Shown: positions 1 through 5,794, counted from the first letter of the stretch. The stretch: 64,000 bases of DNA from an uncultured Gammaproteobacteria bacterium (GCA_900315395.1 OMZC01000107.1:573-64572), one strand, 5' to 3'. Notes: generated by a model from the letters alone, not told the origin. Numbers and translations: made by a program.

Positions 1-419
1 TTTTAAAGAACCGTGATTTTGGAAAAGGAATTGATAAAAGCTTTAGCGAAGCACTTATTATTGCCTTATGCTCGTTAGTATCTTTAATTGTAGGCATGTA
101 TGATGGCATCTATGGTCCAGGTACTGGTACCTTCCTTTTAATTGGTTTTTGTACCTTTGCAAACTGTACCCTAAAGCATGCTAATGGTCTAGCTAAAGCG
201 GTAAATCTTGCGACAAACCTAGCTGCCTTTACAGTGTTCTGCATCAATGATTCTGTTATATTTACCTTAGGTCTTACAGCTGGTATTTTTAGTATTGCAG
301 GTAACTATGCAGGAGCTTTGTTCTTTGAAAAGAAAGGGGCTATCGGAACTAAACCTATCATGATCTTTGTGATTGCAATCTTTATTGTAAAGATCTGCTA
401 CGACCTCTTTAGCGTTTAG
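1..419 (+). CDS. TauE/SafE (YfcA-like) family anion exporter membrane protein, 5' end cut by the window edge
   Basis: The frame is open from base 3 to the stop at 417-419. It has the motif GMYDGIYGPGTGTFLL and Gly-rich hydrophobic helices typical of the TauE/SafE family. Confidence 0.7.
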   Translation, partial: LKNRDFGKGIDKSFSEALIIALCSLVSLIVGMYDGIYGPGTGTFLLIGFCTFANCTLKHANGLAKAVNLATNLAAFTVFCINDSVIFTLGLTAGIFSIAGNYAGALFFEKKGAIGTKPIMIFVIAIFIVKICYDLFSV

Positions 420-509
420 CAAAATCATAAAGCTAACCTAAGTTTAGCATTCTGAAAAGGCATAGTATCTATAAAGACTACACAATAAATAGATCTGAGC
501 TTTAAAATT

Positions 510-539
510 TTGAAAAAAGAAACAAAAATGCACTATAAT
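510..539 (+). promoter_or_regulatory. Sigma-70-type promoter of the antisense RNA (unit 1): TTGAAA-N18-TATAAT
   Basis: The -35 box is at 510-515 and the -10 box at 534-539. Equivalent boxes sit at 915-920/939-944 (TATAAT) and 1282-1287/1306-1311 (TAGAAT). Confidence 0.55.
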
Positions 540-545
540 TGAAGG

Positions 546-732
546 CAAGGCAAGAAATTTCTTTCTCACCTCACTTAAAGGGTGACTCTAATTTACCATG
601 CTGGTGTTGGCCATAATAGTAAAACTAGAATCACTAAAATAATTAAGGTTTTCATGCTAAATTCTTAATTTAAATTAGAAATTAGATTCTAATAATACTA
701 TAGAGCCATTTGCAGATGGCTCTATGTATTTT
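546..732 (+). ncRNA. Candidate cis-antisense antitoxin RNA (Sib-like), unit 1, about 185 nt
   Basis: It runs from the predicted TSS after the 534-539 -10 box, across the complement of the mini-ORF and its SD, to a 9-bp hairpin at 701-724 followed by UGUAUUUUA. Confidence 0.45.
593..655 (-). CDS. Candidate type I toxin, 20-aa hydrophobic peptide MKTLIILVILVLLLWPTPAW (unit 1)
   Basis: ATG at 655 and TAA at 593-595. Composition resembles Ibs-type peptides (a basic residue followed by an L/I/V run and an aromatic end). Frame, length and stop are preserved in unit 3 despite about 9 substitutions, including a synonymous CTA/CTG change. The SD is weakened here (AAGAA). Confidence 0.55.
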   Translation of the reverse strand: MKTLIILVILVLLLWPTPAW

Positions 733-825
733 AGAACCGCCCACCGCCTATAGCGCATCATGTTTTTTACCTGTTCTCTTGACTAATTAATAGTAATCAC
801 TAGTTTTTAATACTTTTTGGTATTT

Positions 826-856
826 GCTAAAACTACAGATTTTCAAGAATTGTAGT
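826..856 (-). terminator. Weak hairpin plus T-run on the minus strand at each unit boundary
   Basis: ACTACA (832-837) pairs with TGTAGT (851-856), followed on the minus strand by TTTTAGC. Equivalent 5-bp versions lie at 1201-1223 and 1872-1894, the last one downstream of tRNA-Leu. Confidence 0.3.
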
Positions 857-903
857 ACCGATCTGCCTAGATGAATATAATGATGGTGAGTTAAAATTTA
901 AGG

Positions 904-1023
904 TTAGAAAAATTTTGAAAACTGAATTAGAAATGCATTATAATTGAGAGTGAATCTAATTTCCAGTGCCGGAGCAGGCCATATTGGTAAAACTAGAATC
1001 ACTAAAATAATTAAGGTTTTCAT
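904..1023 (-). CDS. Variant or possibly decayed toxin-like mini-ORF, 39 aa MKTLIILVILVLPIWPAPALEIRFTLNYNAFLIQFSKFF (unit 2)
   Basis: The first 12 codons and the SD (AAGGA-N6-ATG) match units 1 and 3. A ~38-bp deletion relative to unit 1 removes the stop and the downstream hairpin, so the ORF reads on. Leu13 is replaced by Pro. Confidence 0.35.
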   Translation of the reverse strand: MKTLIILVILVLPIWPAPALEIRFTLNYNAFLIQFSKFF

Positions 1024-1100
1024 TCTCAATCCTTAATTTAAATTAGAAATTAGATTCTAATAATACTATAGAGCCATTTGCAGATGGCTCTATGTATTTT
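951..1100 (+). ncRNA. Candidate cis-antisense antitoxin RNA, unit 2, about 150 nt
   Basis: Same architecture as unit 1: promoter at 915-944, hairpin at 1069-1092, U-rich tail. Confidence 0.4.
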
Positions 1101-1317
1101 AGAACCACCCACGCCTATAGCGCATCATGATTTTTACCTGTTCTCTTGGCTAATTACTAGTAATCACTAGTTTTTTAATACTTTTTGCTATTTGCTAAAA
1201 CTACAGATTTTCAAGACTTGTAGCGTTGATCTGCCTAGATAAACTTAATGATGGAGAAATAAATTTAAGATTAGAAAAAATTTGAAAAAAGAATTAAAAA
1301 TGCACTAGAATTAAAGG

Positions 1318-1498
1318 TGAGGAAGAAATTGCTTTCTTGCTTCGGAGTGATTCTAGTTTACCATACAGGTTGGGCCCATAACAGTAAAACTAGAATCGCT
1401 AAAATAATTAAGGTTTTCATACTAAATCCTTAATTTAAATTAGAAATTAGATTCTAATAATACTATAGAGCCATTTCCCCGATGGCTCTATGTATTTT
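1318..1498 (+). ncRNA. Candidate cis-antisense antitoxin RNA, unit 3, about 180 nt
   Basis: Promoter at 1282-1311 (TAGAAT -10 box). The hairpin at 1466-1490 has the same stem but a different loop (TTCCCCG). Confidence 0.4.
1358..1420 (-). CDS. Candidate type I toxin, 20-aa hydrophobic peptide MKTLIILAILVLLLWAQPVW (unit 3)
   Basis: ATG at 1420, TAA at 1358-1360, SD AAGGA 6 nt upstream. It is a paralogue of the unit 1 peptide. Confidence 0.55.
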   Translation of the reverse strand: MKTLIILAILVLLLWAQPVW

Positions 1499-1574
1499 AG
1501 AACCACCCACGCCTATAGCGCATCATTATTTTACCTGTTCTATTGGCTAATTACTAGTAATCACTAGTTTTTTA

Positions 1575-1841
1575 ATAGCAGTTACGCATCAAACTGACCA
1601 TATTTCAACCAATTCTAAGAATTTCAACTTTAGTGCGTATTATAGTCAAATATAATACATAAACTTCGTCAATTTAAGTGTACCGATCATTTTACTTATT
1701 CTCTCTCCTTTATTTTTTCTGAAATTTGATCAAGTTATTAAACAATTTTGAATTTTTACTAATTTAGCTACAACCTTCAGAACGCTTTGGCTTATTTATC
1801 TGCTTCTAAAATTAAGTTGTAGCTTCATGCGTAACTACTAT
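1575..1841. mobile_element. 267-bp non-coding MITE-like insertion inside repeat unit 3
   Basis: Terminal inverted repeats are ATAGCAGTTACGCATCAA (1575-1592) and the reverse complement of 1824-1841, ATAGTAGTTACGCATGAA (16/18 match). Flanking direct duplication is AGTTTTTTA (1566-1574) and AGTTTTTA (1842-1849). Removing the element plus one duplicate restores the intact repeat consensus CACTAGTTTTTTAATACTTTT. There is no ORF inside. Confidence 0.6.
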
Positions 1842-2021
1842 AGTTTTTAATACTTTTGGTATCTGACAAAACTACAGATTTTCAAGACTTGTAGCATCGA
1901 GCAGCTTTGAAAATTAAACAGATCTCGAAAGAAATTTAAAATTAGTAACTTGTTGATACTACTTATAAATTTACTCAAAAGGTAAATTGAAATTTTGTAA
2001 GATAGGATAGAAGGAAAGATC

Positions 2022-2108
2022 TGGTGCCGAAGATGGGACTCGAACCCATACGCTTTTAAGGGCGGCGGATTTTGAATCCGCTGCGTCTACCAATTCCGCC
2101 ACTTCGGC
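2022..2108 (-). tRNA. tRNA-Leu (anticodon CAA)
   Basis: The reverse complement reads GCCGAAGTGGCGGAATTGGTAGACGC...GGATTCAAAATCC...GGTTCGAGTCCCATCTTCGGCACCA. It has a 7-bp acceptor stem, a long variable arm, a T-loop GGTTCGAGTCC and an encoded CCA. Confidence 0.93.
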
Positions 2109-2160
2109 ACAGAATGGCATCATTATATAGATCGTATCCTAGTTTGTCAAAGCACAATTC

Positions 2161-3225
2161 TTATGATTTTCTGTTCAAAAGATAGATTGCAAAGCCTGCA
2201 AAGATAATAGTAGCAAATGAAGCTCCTACAATCGGAGGAACGCCATAAACTATGGAGAATGGAGCTACGATCTGATTTAAAACATAGTAGCCAAAGCCTA
2301 AAGAAATACCAGATAGAATTCTTGCACCCATGTTCATTGAGCGCAATGGTCCAAAAATAGTAGATAAGGCTAATAGTAGCATCACAAGCATTACTAATGG
2401 CGACATGAACTTATTGTATAAAGCCAAACGGTAACGAGATGAATCGACTCCGTTGTGCTCAATGTAGTTAATATAGTCATAAAGCTGTAGCACTGATAGG
2501 TTCTCTGAAACATCGCTTAAAACTTCAATTCGCTTTAAGTTAATGCCAATCTGCCACACCTGCTTAGGAATATTCTCATGAACAGTTCCTGCATCAGTTA
2601 AAGTTAACTTGTTAACGTCATACATTACCCACTGATCATTCTCGTATTGTCCTATACGAGCCTTAGAGTATGACTTTAGCTTGTTACCTTCAACTTCATA
2701 GCGGACAACACCCATAAGCATGTTACCGTTAACAATACCTAAAATACCGATGTAGTTGTTCCCCTCTTTAATCCAAGTGCCATTGGTAGTTAAAGAAACA
2801 CCTACGTTCAGCGATGCCTTATCAAAATTCTCTTCAGCAATTTTCTCAAGTCTTGGGGCTACAAACTCACCAATGCACAAGATCACGATGATTAGAGGAA
2901 TAATGCTCTTTACACAAGAAACACCGATGTTAAGTTTTGACAGACCGATAGACTGTAAAATGATGATCTCTGAGTTTCTTGCCATCATACCAAGACCAAC
3001 CACACCACCAATCAGAATTGATACTGGGAAGAAGGTTACGCAAATGCCTGGAATTTTGTGCATCACATATTTGATAACAAATAGGAAATCAATAGAGCCA
3101 CGACCAATATAACGTAGAGCATCAATGAAAGTGATGAGACCTGCAAACAGGGTCATACACACCGCTACTAACAGCACTGATAAAATAATATTTTTGCCTA
3201 CATATCTATCGAGAATTCCGTACAT
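2161..3225 (-). CDS. lptG: LPS export ABC transporter permease LptG
   Basis: N-terminus MYGILDRYVGK and overall length match the LptG/YjgQ family. The start is moved to the ATG at 3225, which has GGAGA about 10 nt upstream; the track start at 3246 is a TTG extension. Confidence 0.85.
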   Translation of the reverse strand: MYGILDRYVGKNIILSVLLVAVCMTLFAGLITFIDALRYIGRGSIDFLFVIKYVMHKIPGICVTFFPVSILIGGVVGLGMMARNSEIIILQSIGLSKLNIGVSCVKSIIPLIIVILCIGEFVAPRLEKIAEENFDKASLNVGVSLTTNGTWIKEGNNYIGILGIVNGNMLMGVVRYEVEGNKLKSYSKARIGQYENDQWVMYDVNKLTLTDAGTVHENIPKQVWQIGINLKRIEVLSDVSENLSVLQLYDYINYIEHNGVDSSRYRLALYNKFMSPLVMLVMLLLALSTIFGPLRSMNMGARILSGISLGFGYYVLNQIVAPFSIVYGVPPIVGASFATIIFAGFAIYLLNRKS

Positions 3226-3708
3226 AGATTTCGTGTCTCCATTCAATTAGCACCATTTTATCATACGAAGGGAAAAAACTCTTAGTTCATAAAGGTATAG
3301 AGACATTTTCATAAAAGATGCATTTTCAGGAAGAACCTATTCACAATGGTGCATTTAAAAGTAAAACTTTGATCCATCTAATGATTTGAAATTAAATATG
3401 AAACTAGAAGTCAATTTTTTTGAGAAAAATGGCGTTTTTATCTTTATTTTATGCCTCATCTATTGATAACATAGTGAGTGTAAGCTCATTGATTTATAAA
3501 AGCAGTTTATTTTAATCTATCACTTATATATATCATGTATTATTATTTTCATGATAATATAATTGCAAGATTAAGTGTAAAATCTAAATAATAACGTTTA
3601 GCTTAGATTTTTTAGAACAAAAACGTGAATAAATCACTTGTTCTAAAAAGACTTTATATACATGAAAAATCACCTATATAAAGCTTATTAACATAAATAA
3701 AAATAATT

Positions 3709-4602
3709 ATGAAAACAAATTATCCAATACCTGTTAGAGAGAGAACGATAAACTTCCCTTTTGAATACTATCATTATGATAAGACTAATGACTTTTTCGT
3801 AGTGCCTTTCCACTATCACGAAGATCAGCAGTTATTCAGAGTGATTAAAGGAAGTGTCACCATCACTGCTAATTCACACCTCATTACCTTAAATGAAGGT
3901 GACTGCAGTGTTATTGGAGCTAATGCGGTTCATGCCTGTCAGCCTTGCTCTGAAGAAACTGAATATGAGTCTATTACCTTTAATTTAAGAGATATCTATG
4001 ATCTCTCAATGCCTCATTATTCAATCATCAAAATGATGGTTACTCATCAGTTAGAAGTACAGACCTTCTTCACTAGAGACGATGACAAAGAGATCACTGC
4101 TGTAATTGAAGATATCTTCAGTCACGTCAAAGATGACGATCTGTGCACAAGTATCAGATTGATTGGCAAGCTTACCAATCTGTTTACCCTAGTTGTTGAA
4201 AAGAATGATTACACTCTTTATGACAATGAGGTGGCAGGTCGTTTCTACAAACACTTTACCAAAGCTAATAACGTCTTTAGATATATCTTTGATAACTATA
4301 CTCAGGACATTACCCTTGAGGATATGGCTAAGTCTGTAGAATTATCTGAAAAGTATTTCTGTAAGTTCTTTAAAGAGCTTACAAGTTACAGACCAATGGA
4401 ATACTTGAATAAGTTCAGAACTGAAGTAGCTGCAATTGAGCTTACAACTACCTTAGACAGCATCAATGAAGTTGCTAAAAGATGTGGTTTTAAAGATCCT
4501 TGCTACTTTACCAAGCTCTTTAAGAGGTTTGTGGGTGTTTCTCCAAGAGAATACAGAGAGAACCATCCTAATCGTGTAACTTACGCTTACTCTCTAGAGT
4601 AA
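3709..4602 (+). CDS. AraC family transcriptional regulator (N-terminal cupin, C-terminal double HTH)
   Basis: Cupin-like region HYHEDQQLFRVIKG...GANAVHAC. C-terminal AraC signature EDMAKSVELSEKYFCKFFKE...VAKRCGFKDPCYFTKLFKRFVGVSPREYR. Confidence 0.85.
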   Translation: MKTNYPIPVRERTINFPFEYYHYDKTNDFFVVPFHYHEDQQLFRVIKGSVTITANSHLITLNEGDCSVIGANAVHACQPCSEETEYESITFNLRDIYDLSMPHYSIIKMMVTHQLEVQTFFTRDDDKEITAVIEDIFSHVKDDDLCTSIRLIGKLTNLFTLVVEKNDYTLYDNEVAGRFYKHFTKANNVFRYIFDNYTQDITLEDMAKSVELSEKYFCKFFKELTSYRPMEYLNKFRTEVAAIELTTTLDSINEVAKRCGFKDPCYFTKLFKRFVGVSPREYRENHPNRVTYAYSLE

Positions 4603-4675: not shown

Positions 4676-5794
4676 TTAGCTTTTTACCTCAAGAGTCTTT
4701 TTTGACTTCTTAATTTTCTTCTTAATATCGATATTCAAAGGAATAGCCACAAAGATTAAATAAATTATAGGTACGATGTACATGCCTGGATATAAAGGCA
4801 GTTTCTCAGAATTTAATAGATTTCTGATTGAAAGTAATACTAAGTAATAGCTTACAAACAGTAAGATAGCTGGTCCTAAACGCGCAAACTTACCCTGACG
4901 AGGGTTAATCATAGACAGAGGAATAGCCAAGATTGCAAAGATAAAGCAACCTAAAACAGGGGCTATACGCCACTGTAGCTCTACTTTTGACTTAACCTTA
5001 TCTGAGTGAATTAAATCTAATGTAGAAATACCCTGCAATACATCATCCTTTAGATTGCTGTTTCTGTCAGCAGGAACAGGTACTGCTAGAGTGTCATAGC
5101 TTGTATTCTTTAGAGAACCATCTTTACCGCTGGTCTGATAGAGGTTACCCTCTCCTAAAGTTAACCATCTTATGCCATCTTCATCAGTACGGATGTAACC
5201 TGTTTTAGCTACATTGAATACAGTTTCTTTGTTTTTAATCATCACTGTATCAAGGTTCTTAATCACAACTACTTGATCTAGTGACTTATCCTTTTTCTCG
5301 CCACCGTTTACAGTCTGAATGTAGATAGTGTAGTCTCCAAAGTCTGAAAACTTACCGCTTTCAATTGGCATATAGCTAGGGTTATTCTGAGTATTGTTGC
5401 TCAATACCTTCTGCTCATAGGTAGCTTTAGGCATTAAGTACAGACAATTTACAGCAGTAAAAACAGCTGTAATTAAGGCCAGTAATAAGCCTATCTTCAT
5501 GAAGGTAACACCAGAAATACCAATTGATTTCATCACTACCATTTCTGAATCTGATGACATTCTTGATAAAGAAACAATAATGCCTACATACAAGGTCATA
5601 GGAAGCAGAATGAAACCTACTGATGGCATTGAATAGAGCACTAACTCTGAAACAATGTTTACAGGAACAGAGCCTGAAGATGCCTGACCTAAAAGCTTAA
5701 TTACGGTTTGACATAAAAAAACGGTAAACAGTACGGCAAAGCATACTACCTGAACTTTTAGAATGTCTTTGAAGATATATCTGGTTAAAATCAA
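4676..5794 (-). CDS. lptF: LPS export ABC transporter permease LptF (TTG start)
   Basis: The N-terminus MILTRYIFKDILKVQ aligns with E. coli LptF MIIIRYLVRETLKSQ. It has the periplasmic beta-jellyroll insert and C-terminal TM helices. Confidence 0.85.
   Translation of the reverse strand: MILTRYIFKDILKVQVVCFAVLFTVFLCQTVIKLLGQASSGSVPVNIVSELVLYSMPSVGFILLPMTLYVGIIVSLSRMSSDSEMVVMKSIGISGVTFMKIGLLLALITAVFTAVNCLYLMPKATYEQKVLSNNTQNNPSYMPIESGKFSDFGDYTIYIQTVNGGEKKDKSLDQVVVIKNLDTVMIKNKETVFNVAKTGYIRTDEDGIRWLTLGEGNLYQTSGKDGSLKNTSYDTLAVPVPADRNSNLKDDVLQGISTLDLIHSDKVKSKVELQWRIAPVLGCFIFAILAIPLSMINPRQGKFARLGPAILLFVSYYLVLLSIRNLLNSEKLPLYPGMYIVPIIYLIFVAIPLNIDIKKKIKKSKKTLEVKS

Follow-up and report, generated by a model that had tools for sequence, protein, structure and literature searches.

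The Ibs peptides of Escherichia coli and Salmonella insert into the inner membrane and arrest growth. Ibs is a growth-arresting toxin of 19 amino acids for which a 2025 preprint describes inhibition of the FoF1 ATP synthase (10.1101/2025.05.26.656083). The distinguishing feature of Ibs/Sib, found only there, is an antisense RNA that spans the entire open reading frame (ORF) and is overlapped by the mRNA; in Ldr/Rdl and Hok/Sok the antisense RNA lies 5′ of the ORF (T1TAdb paper, PMC8594479). Repression by Sib RNAs is limited to cognate pairs and, for SibC, involves target recognition domain 1 (TRD1), which lies in the ORF, and TRD2, located at the translation start (PMC2943612). Reports of Ibs homologues come from Enterobacteriaceae and Pasteurellaceae, AapA/IsoA of Helicobacter was described as "apparent Ibs homologs," and the Ldr peptides are about 35 amino acids long, according to the title of Kawano 2002 as cited in the same paper (Fozo et al. 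2010, PMC2887945). The main text of neither that paper nor the T1TAdb paper mentions the Succinivibrionaceae. Here we describe a tandem repeat array in a 64,000-nucleotide stretch of DNA from an uncultured Gammaproteobacteria bacterium (GCA_900315395.1 OMZC01000107.1:573-64572), the whole of which we call the window. Each repeat unit carries a short minus-strand ORF for a hydrophobic peptide opposite a putative plus-strand RNA gene, and, judging from sequence, we put the probability that the unit is a type I toxin/antisense-RNA module at about 0.75. As far as computation goes, it represents a previously unannotated Ibs/Sib-like toxin/antisense family in the Succinivibrionaceae, with two intact units and one decayed unit at this locus.

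Three direct-repeat units occupy positions 489 to 893, 894 to 1260, and 1261 to 1575, with a mean column identity of 83% across the three. Measured from start to start in the direct-repeat families, successive promoter blocks lie 405 and 367 bp apart and successive bodies 368 and 397 bp apart. Unit 1, delimited by direct-repeat families D1 to D4 and the three-unit alignment, is intact. Unit 2 is degenerate, having suffered a 37-bp deletion (alignment columns 55 to 91) that took both the toxin stop codon and the neighboring stem-loop. The body of unit 3 is intact, and its tail resumes at 1843 to 1960 past an insert of about 270 bp; this third copy of the tail (repeat family D2, 63% identity) adjoins a tRNA gene. 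In a relative with a single unit (L010), the tail follows the body directly, with nothing inserted between. No further copies of the repeat were found within the 64-kb window. The array as a whole lies between the 3′ end of a TauE/SafE-family gene (96 to 419, plus strand; Pfam PF01925, E = 5.9e-11) and a tRNA-Leu(CAA) gene (2022 to 2108, minus strand; ARAGORN; Rfam tRNA, 60.6 bits). Both the repeat periods and the flanking genes given in the initial annotation were borne out.

The minus-strand ORFs proved to be exactly as first annotated: two ORFs of 20 amino acids, in unit 1 (655 to 593; MKTLIILVILVLLLWPTPAW) and unit 3 (1420 to 1358; MKTLIILAILVLLLWAQPVW), and a variant of 39 amino acids in unit 2 (1023 to 904). 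Units 1 and 3 differ at 8 positions within the ORF, rather than the "about 9" counted originally, and keep frame, length, and stop as had been claimed. The unit 2 ORF has an L13P substitution, has lost its stop codon, and runs on through the antisense promoter, and for these reasons it is probably inactivated; this 39-amino-acid form is the only one present in public protein sets, where it is unnamed. Taking the window and its relatives together, there are 8 distinct intact peptides of 20 or 21 amino acids that follow the pattern MKTLIIL…W….W, with M1, K2, T3, L4, I6, L10, L13, W15, and W20 invariant. The peptides are hydrophobic and of membrane type, with MK followed by a core of 12 or 13 I/L/V residues.

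Several features indicate that the minus-strand ORF is maintained as a coding sequence. The start codon ATG, the Shine-Dalgarno (SD) sequence, the stop codon, and both single-codon Trp residues are invariant in the intact copies, even within an otherwise variable loop, and the conserved stop stands immediately 3′ of the last Trp. The SD sequence is AAGGA, 6 to 8 nucleotides upstream of the ATG, except in unit 1, where it is AAGAA. Variable columns are distributed 10/4/12 over the three codon positions, position 2 thus being the least variable (4 of 22 columns), and the ratio of nonsynonymous to synonymous differences (pN/pS) in the ORF frame is 0.38, most substitutions being synonymous. Substitutions keep the peptide hydrophobic, a single Leu codon appears as CTA, CTG, CTT, and CTC in different copies, and the sole length change is a 3-nucleotide indel that stays in frame. 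The initial annotation had argued for coding constraint from units 1 and 3, and the ORF proved to be conserved as coding sequence across two genera. We conclude from the conserved ATG, SD sequence, and stop, the low pN/pS, and the in-frame indel that purifying selection acts on the minus-strand ORF at the peptide level.

Candidate ORFs on the opposite strand were rejected. Plus-strand ORFs of 28 to 38 amino acids run antisense to the mini-ORF, and the frame that shares wobble positions with it, with a pN/pS of 0.35, is the sole other stop-free frame of similar ratio. This frame is open automatically opposite NUN codons, which accounts for its lack of stops, and it contains no ATG in any copy, no start codon of any kind in 3 of 9 copies, and no SD sequence.

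The plus strand of each unit carries a predicted promoter just beyond the ORF stop. Near-consensus promoters were recovered where they had been annotated, namely, TTGAAA-N18-TATAAT in unit 1 (510 to 539) and unit 2 (915 to 944), each with 11 of 12 consensus positions, and TTGAAA-N18-TAGAAT in unit 3 (1282 to 1311), with 10 of 12. Across the family, the best plus-strand promoter scored 10 or 11 of 12 in 10 of 13 units and 8 or 9 of 12 in decayed copies. Moreover, the −10 element ends 101 to 113 nucleotides from the complement of the AUG, although the surrounding DNA cannot be aligned between genera. Each unit also has a hairpin, H1 (699 to 726, 1067 to 1094, and 1464 to 1492 in units 1, 2, and 3, plus strand), which would serve both as the intrinsic terminator of the antitoxin RNA and as a hairpin in the 5′ untranslated region (UTR) of the toxin mRNA. 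The conserved hairpin with a U-rich tail described previously was found at all three sites, with a stem of up to 12 bp followed by a TATTTTAG tail and with compensatory UA/AU/GC changes at the stem base. Terminator-like sites numbered 7, against 0.8 expected from shuffled sequences.

Promoter and terminator together predict an antitoxin RNA of 183 to 197 nucleotides across the family, as delimited by CM R1, a covariance model built in this analysis from Succinivibrionaceae antisense RNAs. The predicted RNA extends from 545 to 734 in unit 1 (about 190 nucleotides and four stem-loops; 182.4 bits), from 922 to 1102 in unit 2, where the 5′ stem-loop is missing (136.6 bits), and from 1316 to 1500 in unit 3 (about 185 nucleotides; 188.3 bits), all on the plus strand. 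As foreseen, the unit 1 RNA would contain the whole ORF (593 to 655) and its SD sequence (661 to 666), and unit 3 is alike. The four stem-loops (SL) are a 5′ stem-loop (SL1); a hairpin antisense to the 3′ half and stop of the ORF, with the variable C-terminal codons in its loop (SL2); an anti-SD/anti-AUG hairpin (SL3); and the terminator (SL4). In a 12-copy model-fitted alignment, 92.1% of cells are paired in this structure, 10 pairs (32 cells) show compensatory changes, and the covariation score was reached by none of 500 shuffles. The unit 3 RNA has a minimum free energy of −57.5 kcal/mol (z = −6.85).

The strand complementary to this RNA, that of the putative toxin mRNA, folds into hairpins that enclose both ends of the ORF. 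An 8-bp stem (AAUUAAGG/CCUUAAUU) holds the SD sequence and closes a loop that contains the AUG, and this hairpin is present on the minus strand of unit 1 (641 to 670; AAUUAAGa/cCUUAAUU, SD AAGAAT at 661 to 666), unit 2 (1009 to 1038; SD AAGGAT), and unit 3 (1406 to 1435; SD AAGGAT at 1426 to 1431). The helix is 93.8% paired and shows a UA-to-CG compensatory change in one copy. A second minus-strand hairpin (582 to 634 in unit 1; 1347 to 1399 in unit 3) pairs codons 8 to 13 with the stop codon and 3′ UTR, leaving the variable C-terminal codons in the loop; it is 88% paired, with compensatory changes at 4 pairs. Just 3′ of the stop is a GC-rich hairpin (545 to 574 in unit 1, where it is complementary to SL1 of the antitoxin RNA; 1317 to 1343 in unit 3; minus strand), with compensatory changes in 5 of 7 pairs. 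In unit 1 this hairpin has a predicted stability of −14.5 kcal/mol on the minus strand versus −5.2 kcal/mol on the plus strand; in 9 of 10 copies the ORF strand gives much the better fold, and on that strand a U-rich run, overlapping the antisense −10 box, comes after it. We predict that the GC-rich hairpin is a terminator or 3′ stem-loop of the toxin mRNA. The toxin-sense structure as a whole is 91.9% paired with 9 compensatory pairs, and its covariation was again equaled by none of 500 shuffles.

One could suppose instead that the repeats are tandem genes for plus-strand noncoding small RNAs, trans-acting or otherwise, and that the mini-ORF is a by-product. The plus-strand promoter and terminator are indeed the strongest signals in the unit, the RNA is highly structured with covariation, and pN/pS alone cannot part the ORF frame from the wobble-sharing antisense frame (0.38 versus 0.35). 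A by-product would nevertheless not be expected to keep its ATG, SD sequence, stop, and both Trp codons invariant in intact copies, to vary least at codon position 2, to tolerate an indel only in frame, or to retain hydrophobicity through its substitutions, and the post-stop hairpin, with its U-run, favors the ORF strand. We consider a purely noncoding role very unlikely.

The least secure element of the proposed module is the toxin promoter. A −10-like hexamer ends 36 to 51 nucleotides upstream of H1 in 9 of 13 units, accompanied by poor −35 elements; the candidates are TAAAAA in unit 1 (764 to 769) and TAAAAT in unit 3 (1528 to 1533), both on the minus strand and the former weak. The extent of the mRNA is inferred from these candidate −10 elements at one end and the 3′ hairpin with its U-run at the other. 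We also considered a long-distance helix that would close the 5′ end of the mRNA on the 3′ end by pairing GGGUGGUUCUAA, upstream of H1, with UUAGAAUCACCC, after the stop. This helix is 80.5% paired with no compensatory pair, and such closure is only a possibility, weaker than the local-hairpin model. Separately, a palindrome, ACTAGT-AATC-ACTAGT, is present at 1156 to 1171 and 1553 to 1568, with an imperfect copy near 789 to 804. It sits where the −35 element (TAGTAA) of the candidate toxin promoter would be and could be a repressor operator.

Locus anatomy, combined with what is established for Ibs/Sib, suggests the following mechanism. A weakly transcribed, tightly folded minus-strand mRNA of about 210 nucleotides would encode the 20-amino-acid hydrophobic peptide, with the SD sequence locked in the 8-bp stem around the AUG, the 3′ half and stop of the ORF in the second hairpin, and the GC-rich hairpin with its U-rich tail ending the mRNA on top of the antisense promoter. 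On the plus strand, a strong sigma-70-type promoter would drive an RNA of about 185 to 190 nucleotides ending at the conserved hairpin terminator and perfectly complementary to the whole ORF, the SD sequence, and most of the 5′ UTR. Once the two RNAs had paired, ribosomes would be unable to bind, and the duplex would probably be a substrate for RNase III, so that the peptide is kept off. If levels of the antisense RNA fell, synthesis of the peptide would follow, with its insertion into the inner membrane and growth arrest. Units 1 and 3 differ mainly in the 5′ third of this RNA, a region that may restrict each RNA to its own mRNA, like TRD1 of Sib. Identity between the unit 1 and unit 3 RNAs is 54% in SL1, 68% in the SL2 loop, and 85 to 100% elsewhere, a pattern that would suit paralogue discrimination and could just as well stem from partial gene conversion.

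The resemblance to Ibs/Sib extends over both products. Both systems have a hydrophobic peptide of roughly 19 to 21 amino acids with an M(M)K start, an I/L/V core, and an aromatic last residue, and both have (here by prediction) a cis-antisense RNA over the entire ORF and its ribosome-binding site. The order of elements in the RNA is likewise the same: 5′ stem-loop, anti-stop, anti-ORF, anti-SD, and terminator. Tandem copies occupy one intergenic region in each case, with periods of 335 and 376 bp for E. coli sibA/B and sibD/E and of 405 and 367 bp here, and paralogue differences are concentrated in a part of the RNA that overlaps the ORF (PMC2943612). The differences are a C-terminal W-x4-W motif in place of SF-xx-Y, an RNA of about 185 to 195 rather than about 136 to 145 nucleotides, and about 35 extra nucleotides between the anti-SD element and the terminator.

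The initial annotation likened the architecture to both the Ibs/Sib and the Ldr/Rdl repeats. Because the predicted antisense RNA spans the whole ORF, the layout is Ibs/Sib-like and not Ldr-like, and only the first half of that comparison stands. With Ldr/Rdl the array shares tandem direct repeats of a few hundred base pairs, each with a small hydrophobic ORF and a cis-antisense RNA, and on that ground the module could be of Ldr/Rdl type. The Ldr peptides, however, are about 35 rather than 20 or 21 amino acids long, their antisense RNA does not cover the ORF, and no Ldr family appeared among the Pfam matches even at E ≤ 10, which leaves assignment to Ldr/Rdl with a negligible chance. The heavily structured mRNA with a sequestered SD sequence is a likeness to AapA/IsoA (PMC8594479 and PMC6733600). 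An antisense RNA over the entire ORF, as predicted here, is by contrast confined to Ibs/Sib (PMC8594479), and the 5′-3′ closing helix, another point of comparison with AapA/IsoA, is the poorly paired one described above.

Profile comparison gave a similarity to Ibs that exceeded all controls. Alignment of the 8 peptides to 5 E. coli Ibs peptides by hhalign gave a probability of 93.7% and a score of 25.2, with 53% identity over 15 columns, bearing in mind that short hydrophobic peptides can converge. None of 100 full column shuffles reached this score (maximum, 17.6), nor did any of 100 shuffles in which MMK was fixed (maximum, 22.0). Ibs_toxin was moreover the top Pfam match for 4 of 6 peptides, below its cutoff. 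At the RNA level, CM R1 was run with filters off on two E. coli loci, where its top three matches were sibE, sibD, and sibA and its fifth was sibB; each of the four lay on the correct strand and covered nearly the whole gene, with ends close to the annotated sib boundaries (L035 1090 to 1235 and 714 to 860, minus strand; L034 716 to 862 and 1049 to 1190, plus strand). In a 193-kb CM R1 search, sibE was the best match from outside the family (E = 0.089, on a rough calibration). The hhalign and CM R1 results point to a distant relationship with Ibs/Sib, which on sequence comparison is plausible; the chance of true homology is roughly even.

A set of results weighs against the proposed module or against its kinship to Ibs/Sib. 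First, the promoter scan found no convincing consensus sigma-70 promoter for the toxin mRNA. Second, raw hairpin energies favor the toxin strand in 9 or 10 of 10 copies, and each strand is much more stably folded than shuffles of itself (z = −5.5 to −9.0); since the z-scores are alike on the two strands, the asymmetry may be compositional, and we dropped hairpin stability as proof of a minus-strand RNA. Third, the clustering of differences between paralogues could come from partial gene conversion and not from selection for discrimination. Fourth, the search patterns demanded the AGAGCCAT/ATGGCTCT hairpin core and an MKT(L) start, so the invariance of that core and of the first codons, and the narrow taxonomic range, are partly so by construction. 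Fifth, the peptides score 9.3 to 14.4 bits (E = 0.04 to 1.6) against Pfam PF13956 (Ibs_toxin), over residues 1 to 13 only and versus a gathering cutoff of 27, and NCBIfam gave no Ibs-type match. Sixth, Rfam RF00113 (SIB_RNA) found no match at E ≤ 1 in positions 1 to 4000 of the window and none at E ≤ 10 in five related loci, whereas E. coli sibA/B/D/E score 142 to 150 bits. Seventh, the CM R1 scores of the E. coli genes are low and only roughly calibrated (sibE, 17.9; sibD, 11.4; sibA, 9.2; sibB, 3.0 bits). Finally, similarity between short hydrophobic peptides can be convergent. With the Pfam and Rfam thresholds missed, "Ibs/Sib-like" is the right description and membership in the Ibs/Sib family is not demonstrated; the peptide resemblance noted in the initial annotation survives as a score above all 200 shuffles and falls short of the Pfam cutoff. 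We note an asymmetry between the models, in that the Succinivibrionaceae covariance model picks out the sib genes and the Rfam SIB model misses the Succinivibrionaceae RNAs. Two other Rfam look-alikes, the S4-Flavobacteria leader and RsaD, were far below threshold and were rejected, the first merely outlining the SD hairpin, including the stem in unit 2.

A further alternative concerns ancestry. The units might form a separate type I family confined to gut and rumen Succinivibrionaceae, in which the Ibs/Sib design was reached independently or has diverged beyond recognition and in which residues 16 to 19 were shaped by cognate RNA-RNA recognition and not by peptide function. Those residues, between the two invariant Trp, do fall in the loop of a hairpin on both RNAs. 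We regard this proposal as possible but doubtful.

Degenerate pattern scans covered 185,579 species genomes as well as metagenomes. The array itself comes from a gut bacterium resembling Succinatimonas. The genes flanking the array are 100% identical to those of metagenome contigs and of a metagenome-assembled genome (GCA_017468785.1), and several of these contigs carry an identical three-unit array. The flanks are 94% identical to those of Succinatimonas sp. UBA6849, which has one syntenic unit encoding MKTLIILAILVLLLWATPVW, and 81 to 84% identical to those of Succinatimonas sp. CAG:777, in which the syntenic unit (L011) has decayed through a W15-to-stop change, deletion of the hairpin, and weakening of the promoter. 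Two nonsyntenic loci in Succinivibrio dextrinosolvens ACV-10 encode MKTLIILIVVLILLLWSAAVW and MKTLIILVILVFLIWSSPLW. Five metagenome contigs (L027, L028, L030, L032, and L033) have intact copies, and two others (L024 and L025) have a 1-nucleotide frameshift each. In all, the reading frame is kept in 8 intact peptides from two genera, the preservation in relatives that the initial annotation had proposed looking for. Neighbors of the module are differing housekeeping genes, including DAHP synthase with a MetE-like gene, a SerA-like gene, Usp, and PTS EIIA. Because the neighbors are unrelated from locus to locus, the module behaves as an autonomous unit.

Several negative results bound this distribution. 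The pattern scan of viral contigs gave 0 matches, and the unit DNA matched nothing in collections of plasmids and phages or in 5,426 E. coli genomes. The eight peptides of 20 or 21 amino acids are absent from a collection of about 15 billion predicted proteins, and they reach the threshold of no Rfam, Pfam, or NCBIfam model. The metagenome matches in L026 and L029 and 11 of 15 genome matches were discarded as chance pattern matches, most of them to the opening codons of ORFs that are longer or unrelated in other ways. An apparent 100-bp insertion in L003 was a scaffold gap of Ns. As a side observation, the module is directly downstream of, and co-oriented with, a gene with a PD-(D/E)XK nuclease domain (PDDEXK_9) at two independent loci (L019, 409 to 2049; L028, 849 to 1439). 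The L019 gene also has an AAA-ATPase-like domain, and either hitchhiking or a functional link is possible.

Proximity to a tRNA gene raises the question of whether the repeats are functionless remnants of a mobile element or integration-site duplications at a tRNA-Leu hot spot. The array adjoins tRNA-Leu, integrase and resolvase genes stand beside that tRNA gene in strains with identical flanks, unit 3 is split by an insert with inverted ends, and copy number in close relatives varies (3, 1, and a decayed 1). In another genus, however, the module is kept as a unit at unrelated loci away from tRNA genes, and there too the coding constraint, the conserved promoter, and the compensatory RNA changes are seen, which would not be expected of remnants; the unit itself comes with neither terminal inverted repeats nor a transposase. 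We judge that the repeats are extremely unlikely to be debris of this kind.

Inactivating lesions of the ORF are present in 4 of 13 distinct units (unit 2, CAG:777/L011, L024, and L025). Such a proportion fits a potentially harmful product and a decay pattern typical of toxins, toxicity itself being a prediction. Many bacterial small membrane proteins are of comparable size and hydrophobicity, and the ORF might encode a nontoxic one, for example, a modulator of a transporter or sensor, tuned by cis-antisense RNA and forming no toxin-antitoxin pair. The evidence for coding constraint and for an antisense gene would serve that explanation equally, as it does not extend to toxicity. Tandem amplification, scattered nonsyntenic copies, and the inactivation of 4 of 13 units nonetheless suit a selfish or toxic module better. 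Moreover, the peptide resembles Ibs toxins above shuffled controls, and its translation start is predicted to be sequestered and to lie wholly within the region complementary to an antisense RNA with a strong promoter. A nontoxic regulator is therefore unlikely, and a type I toxin remains our preferred interpretation of the ORF. If that interpretation is confirmed, the Ibs/Sib design would extend to the Succinivibrionaceae, which are abundant gut and rumen anaerobes. The family would also offer a second and independent group of paralogues in which to examine how antisense RNAs of full complementarity tell cognate from noncognate toxin mRNAs, and the covariance model and peptide profile could be used to annotate Succinivibrionaceae genomes. 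It would be an incremental addition to a well-known class, with no new principle.

The insert that parts the unit 3 body from its tail (1575 to 1841) is AT-rich, about 270 bp long, and bounded by imperfect inverted ends of 21 nucleotides (1575 to 1595 and 1821 to 1841) that are 86% complementary. A similar short sequence flanks it on both sides (TAGTTTTTTAATA/TAGTTTTTAATA), giving it the look of a miniature inverted-repeat transposable element (MITE), and it was seen only in contigs with flanks identical to the window. We rejected the idea of a multicopy MITE, as the insert is single copy in all sequence searched.

The tRNA-Leu(CAA) gene seems to mark a hot spot for integration. Among same-species contigs that match the window at 100% identity over the tRNA-Leu/lptG flank, one has a phage-type integrase gene beside tRNA-Leu (L001, 2855 to 4075) and another has a resolvase gene with a large ORF there (L002, 2610 to 3188). 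The repeat unit was not found within about 4 kb in those two contigs, nor within about 1 kb in L005. In the window, the unit tails (840 to 866 and 1208 to 1234) and the lone tail (1866 to 1890) each contain a minus-strand inverted repeat, CTACAAG...CTGTAG, followed by TTTTAG. With a predicted stability of −4 to −10 kcal/mol, it may be a weak terminator that insulates the units from tRNA-Leu/lptG read-through. Farther along, an AraC-family regulator gene (cupin and HTH_18 domains; 3709 to 4602, plus strand) sits between the lptG-like (2161 to 3246) and lptF-like (4676 to 5794) permease genes, on the strand opposite to both.

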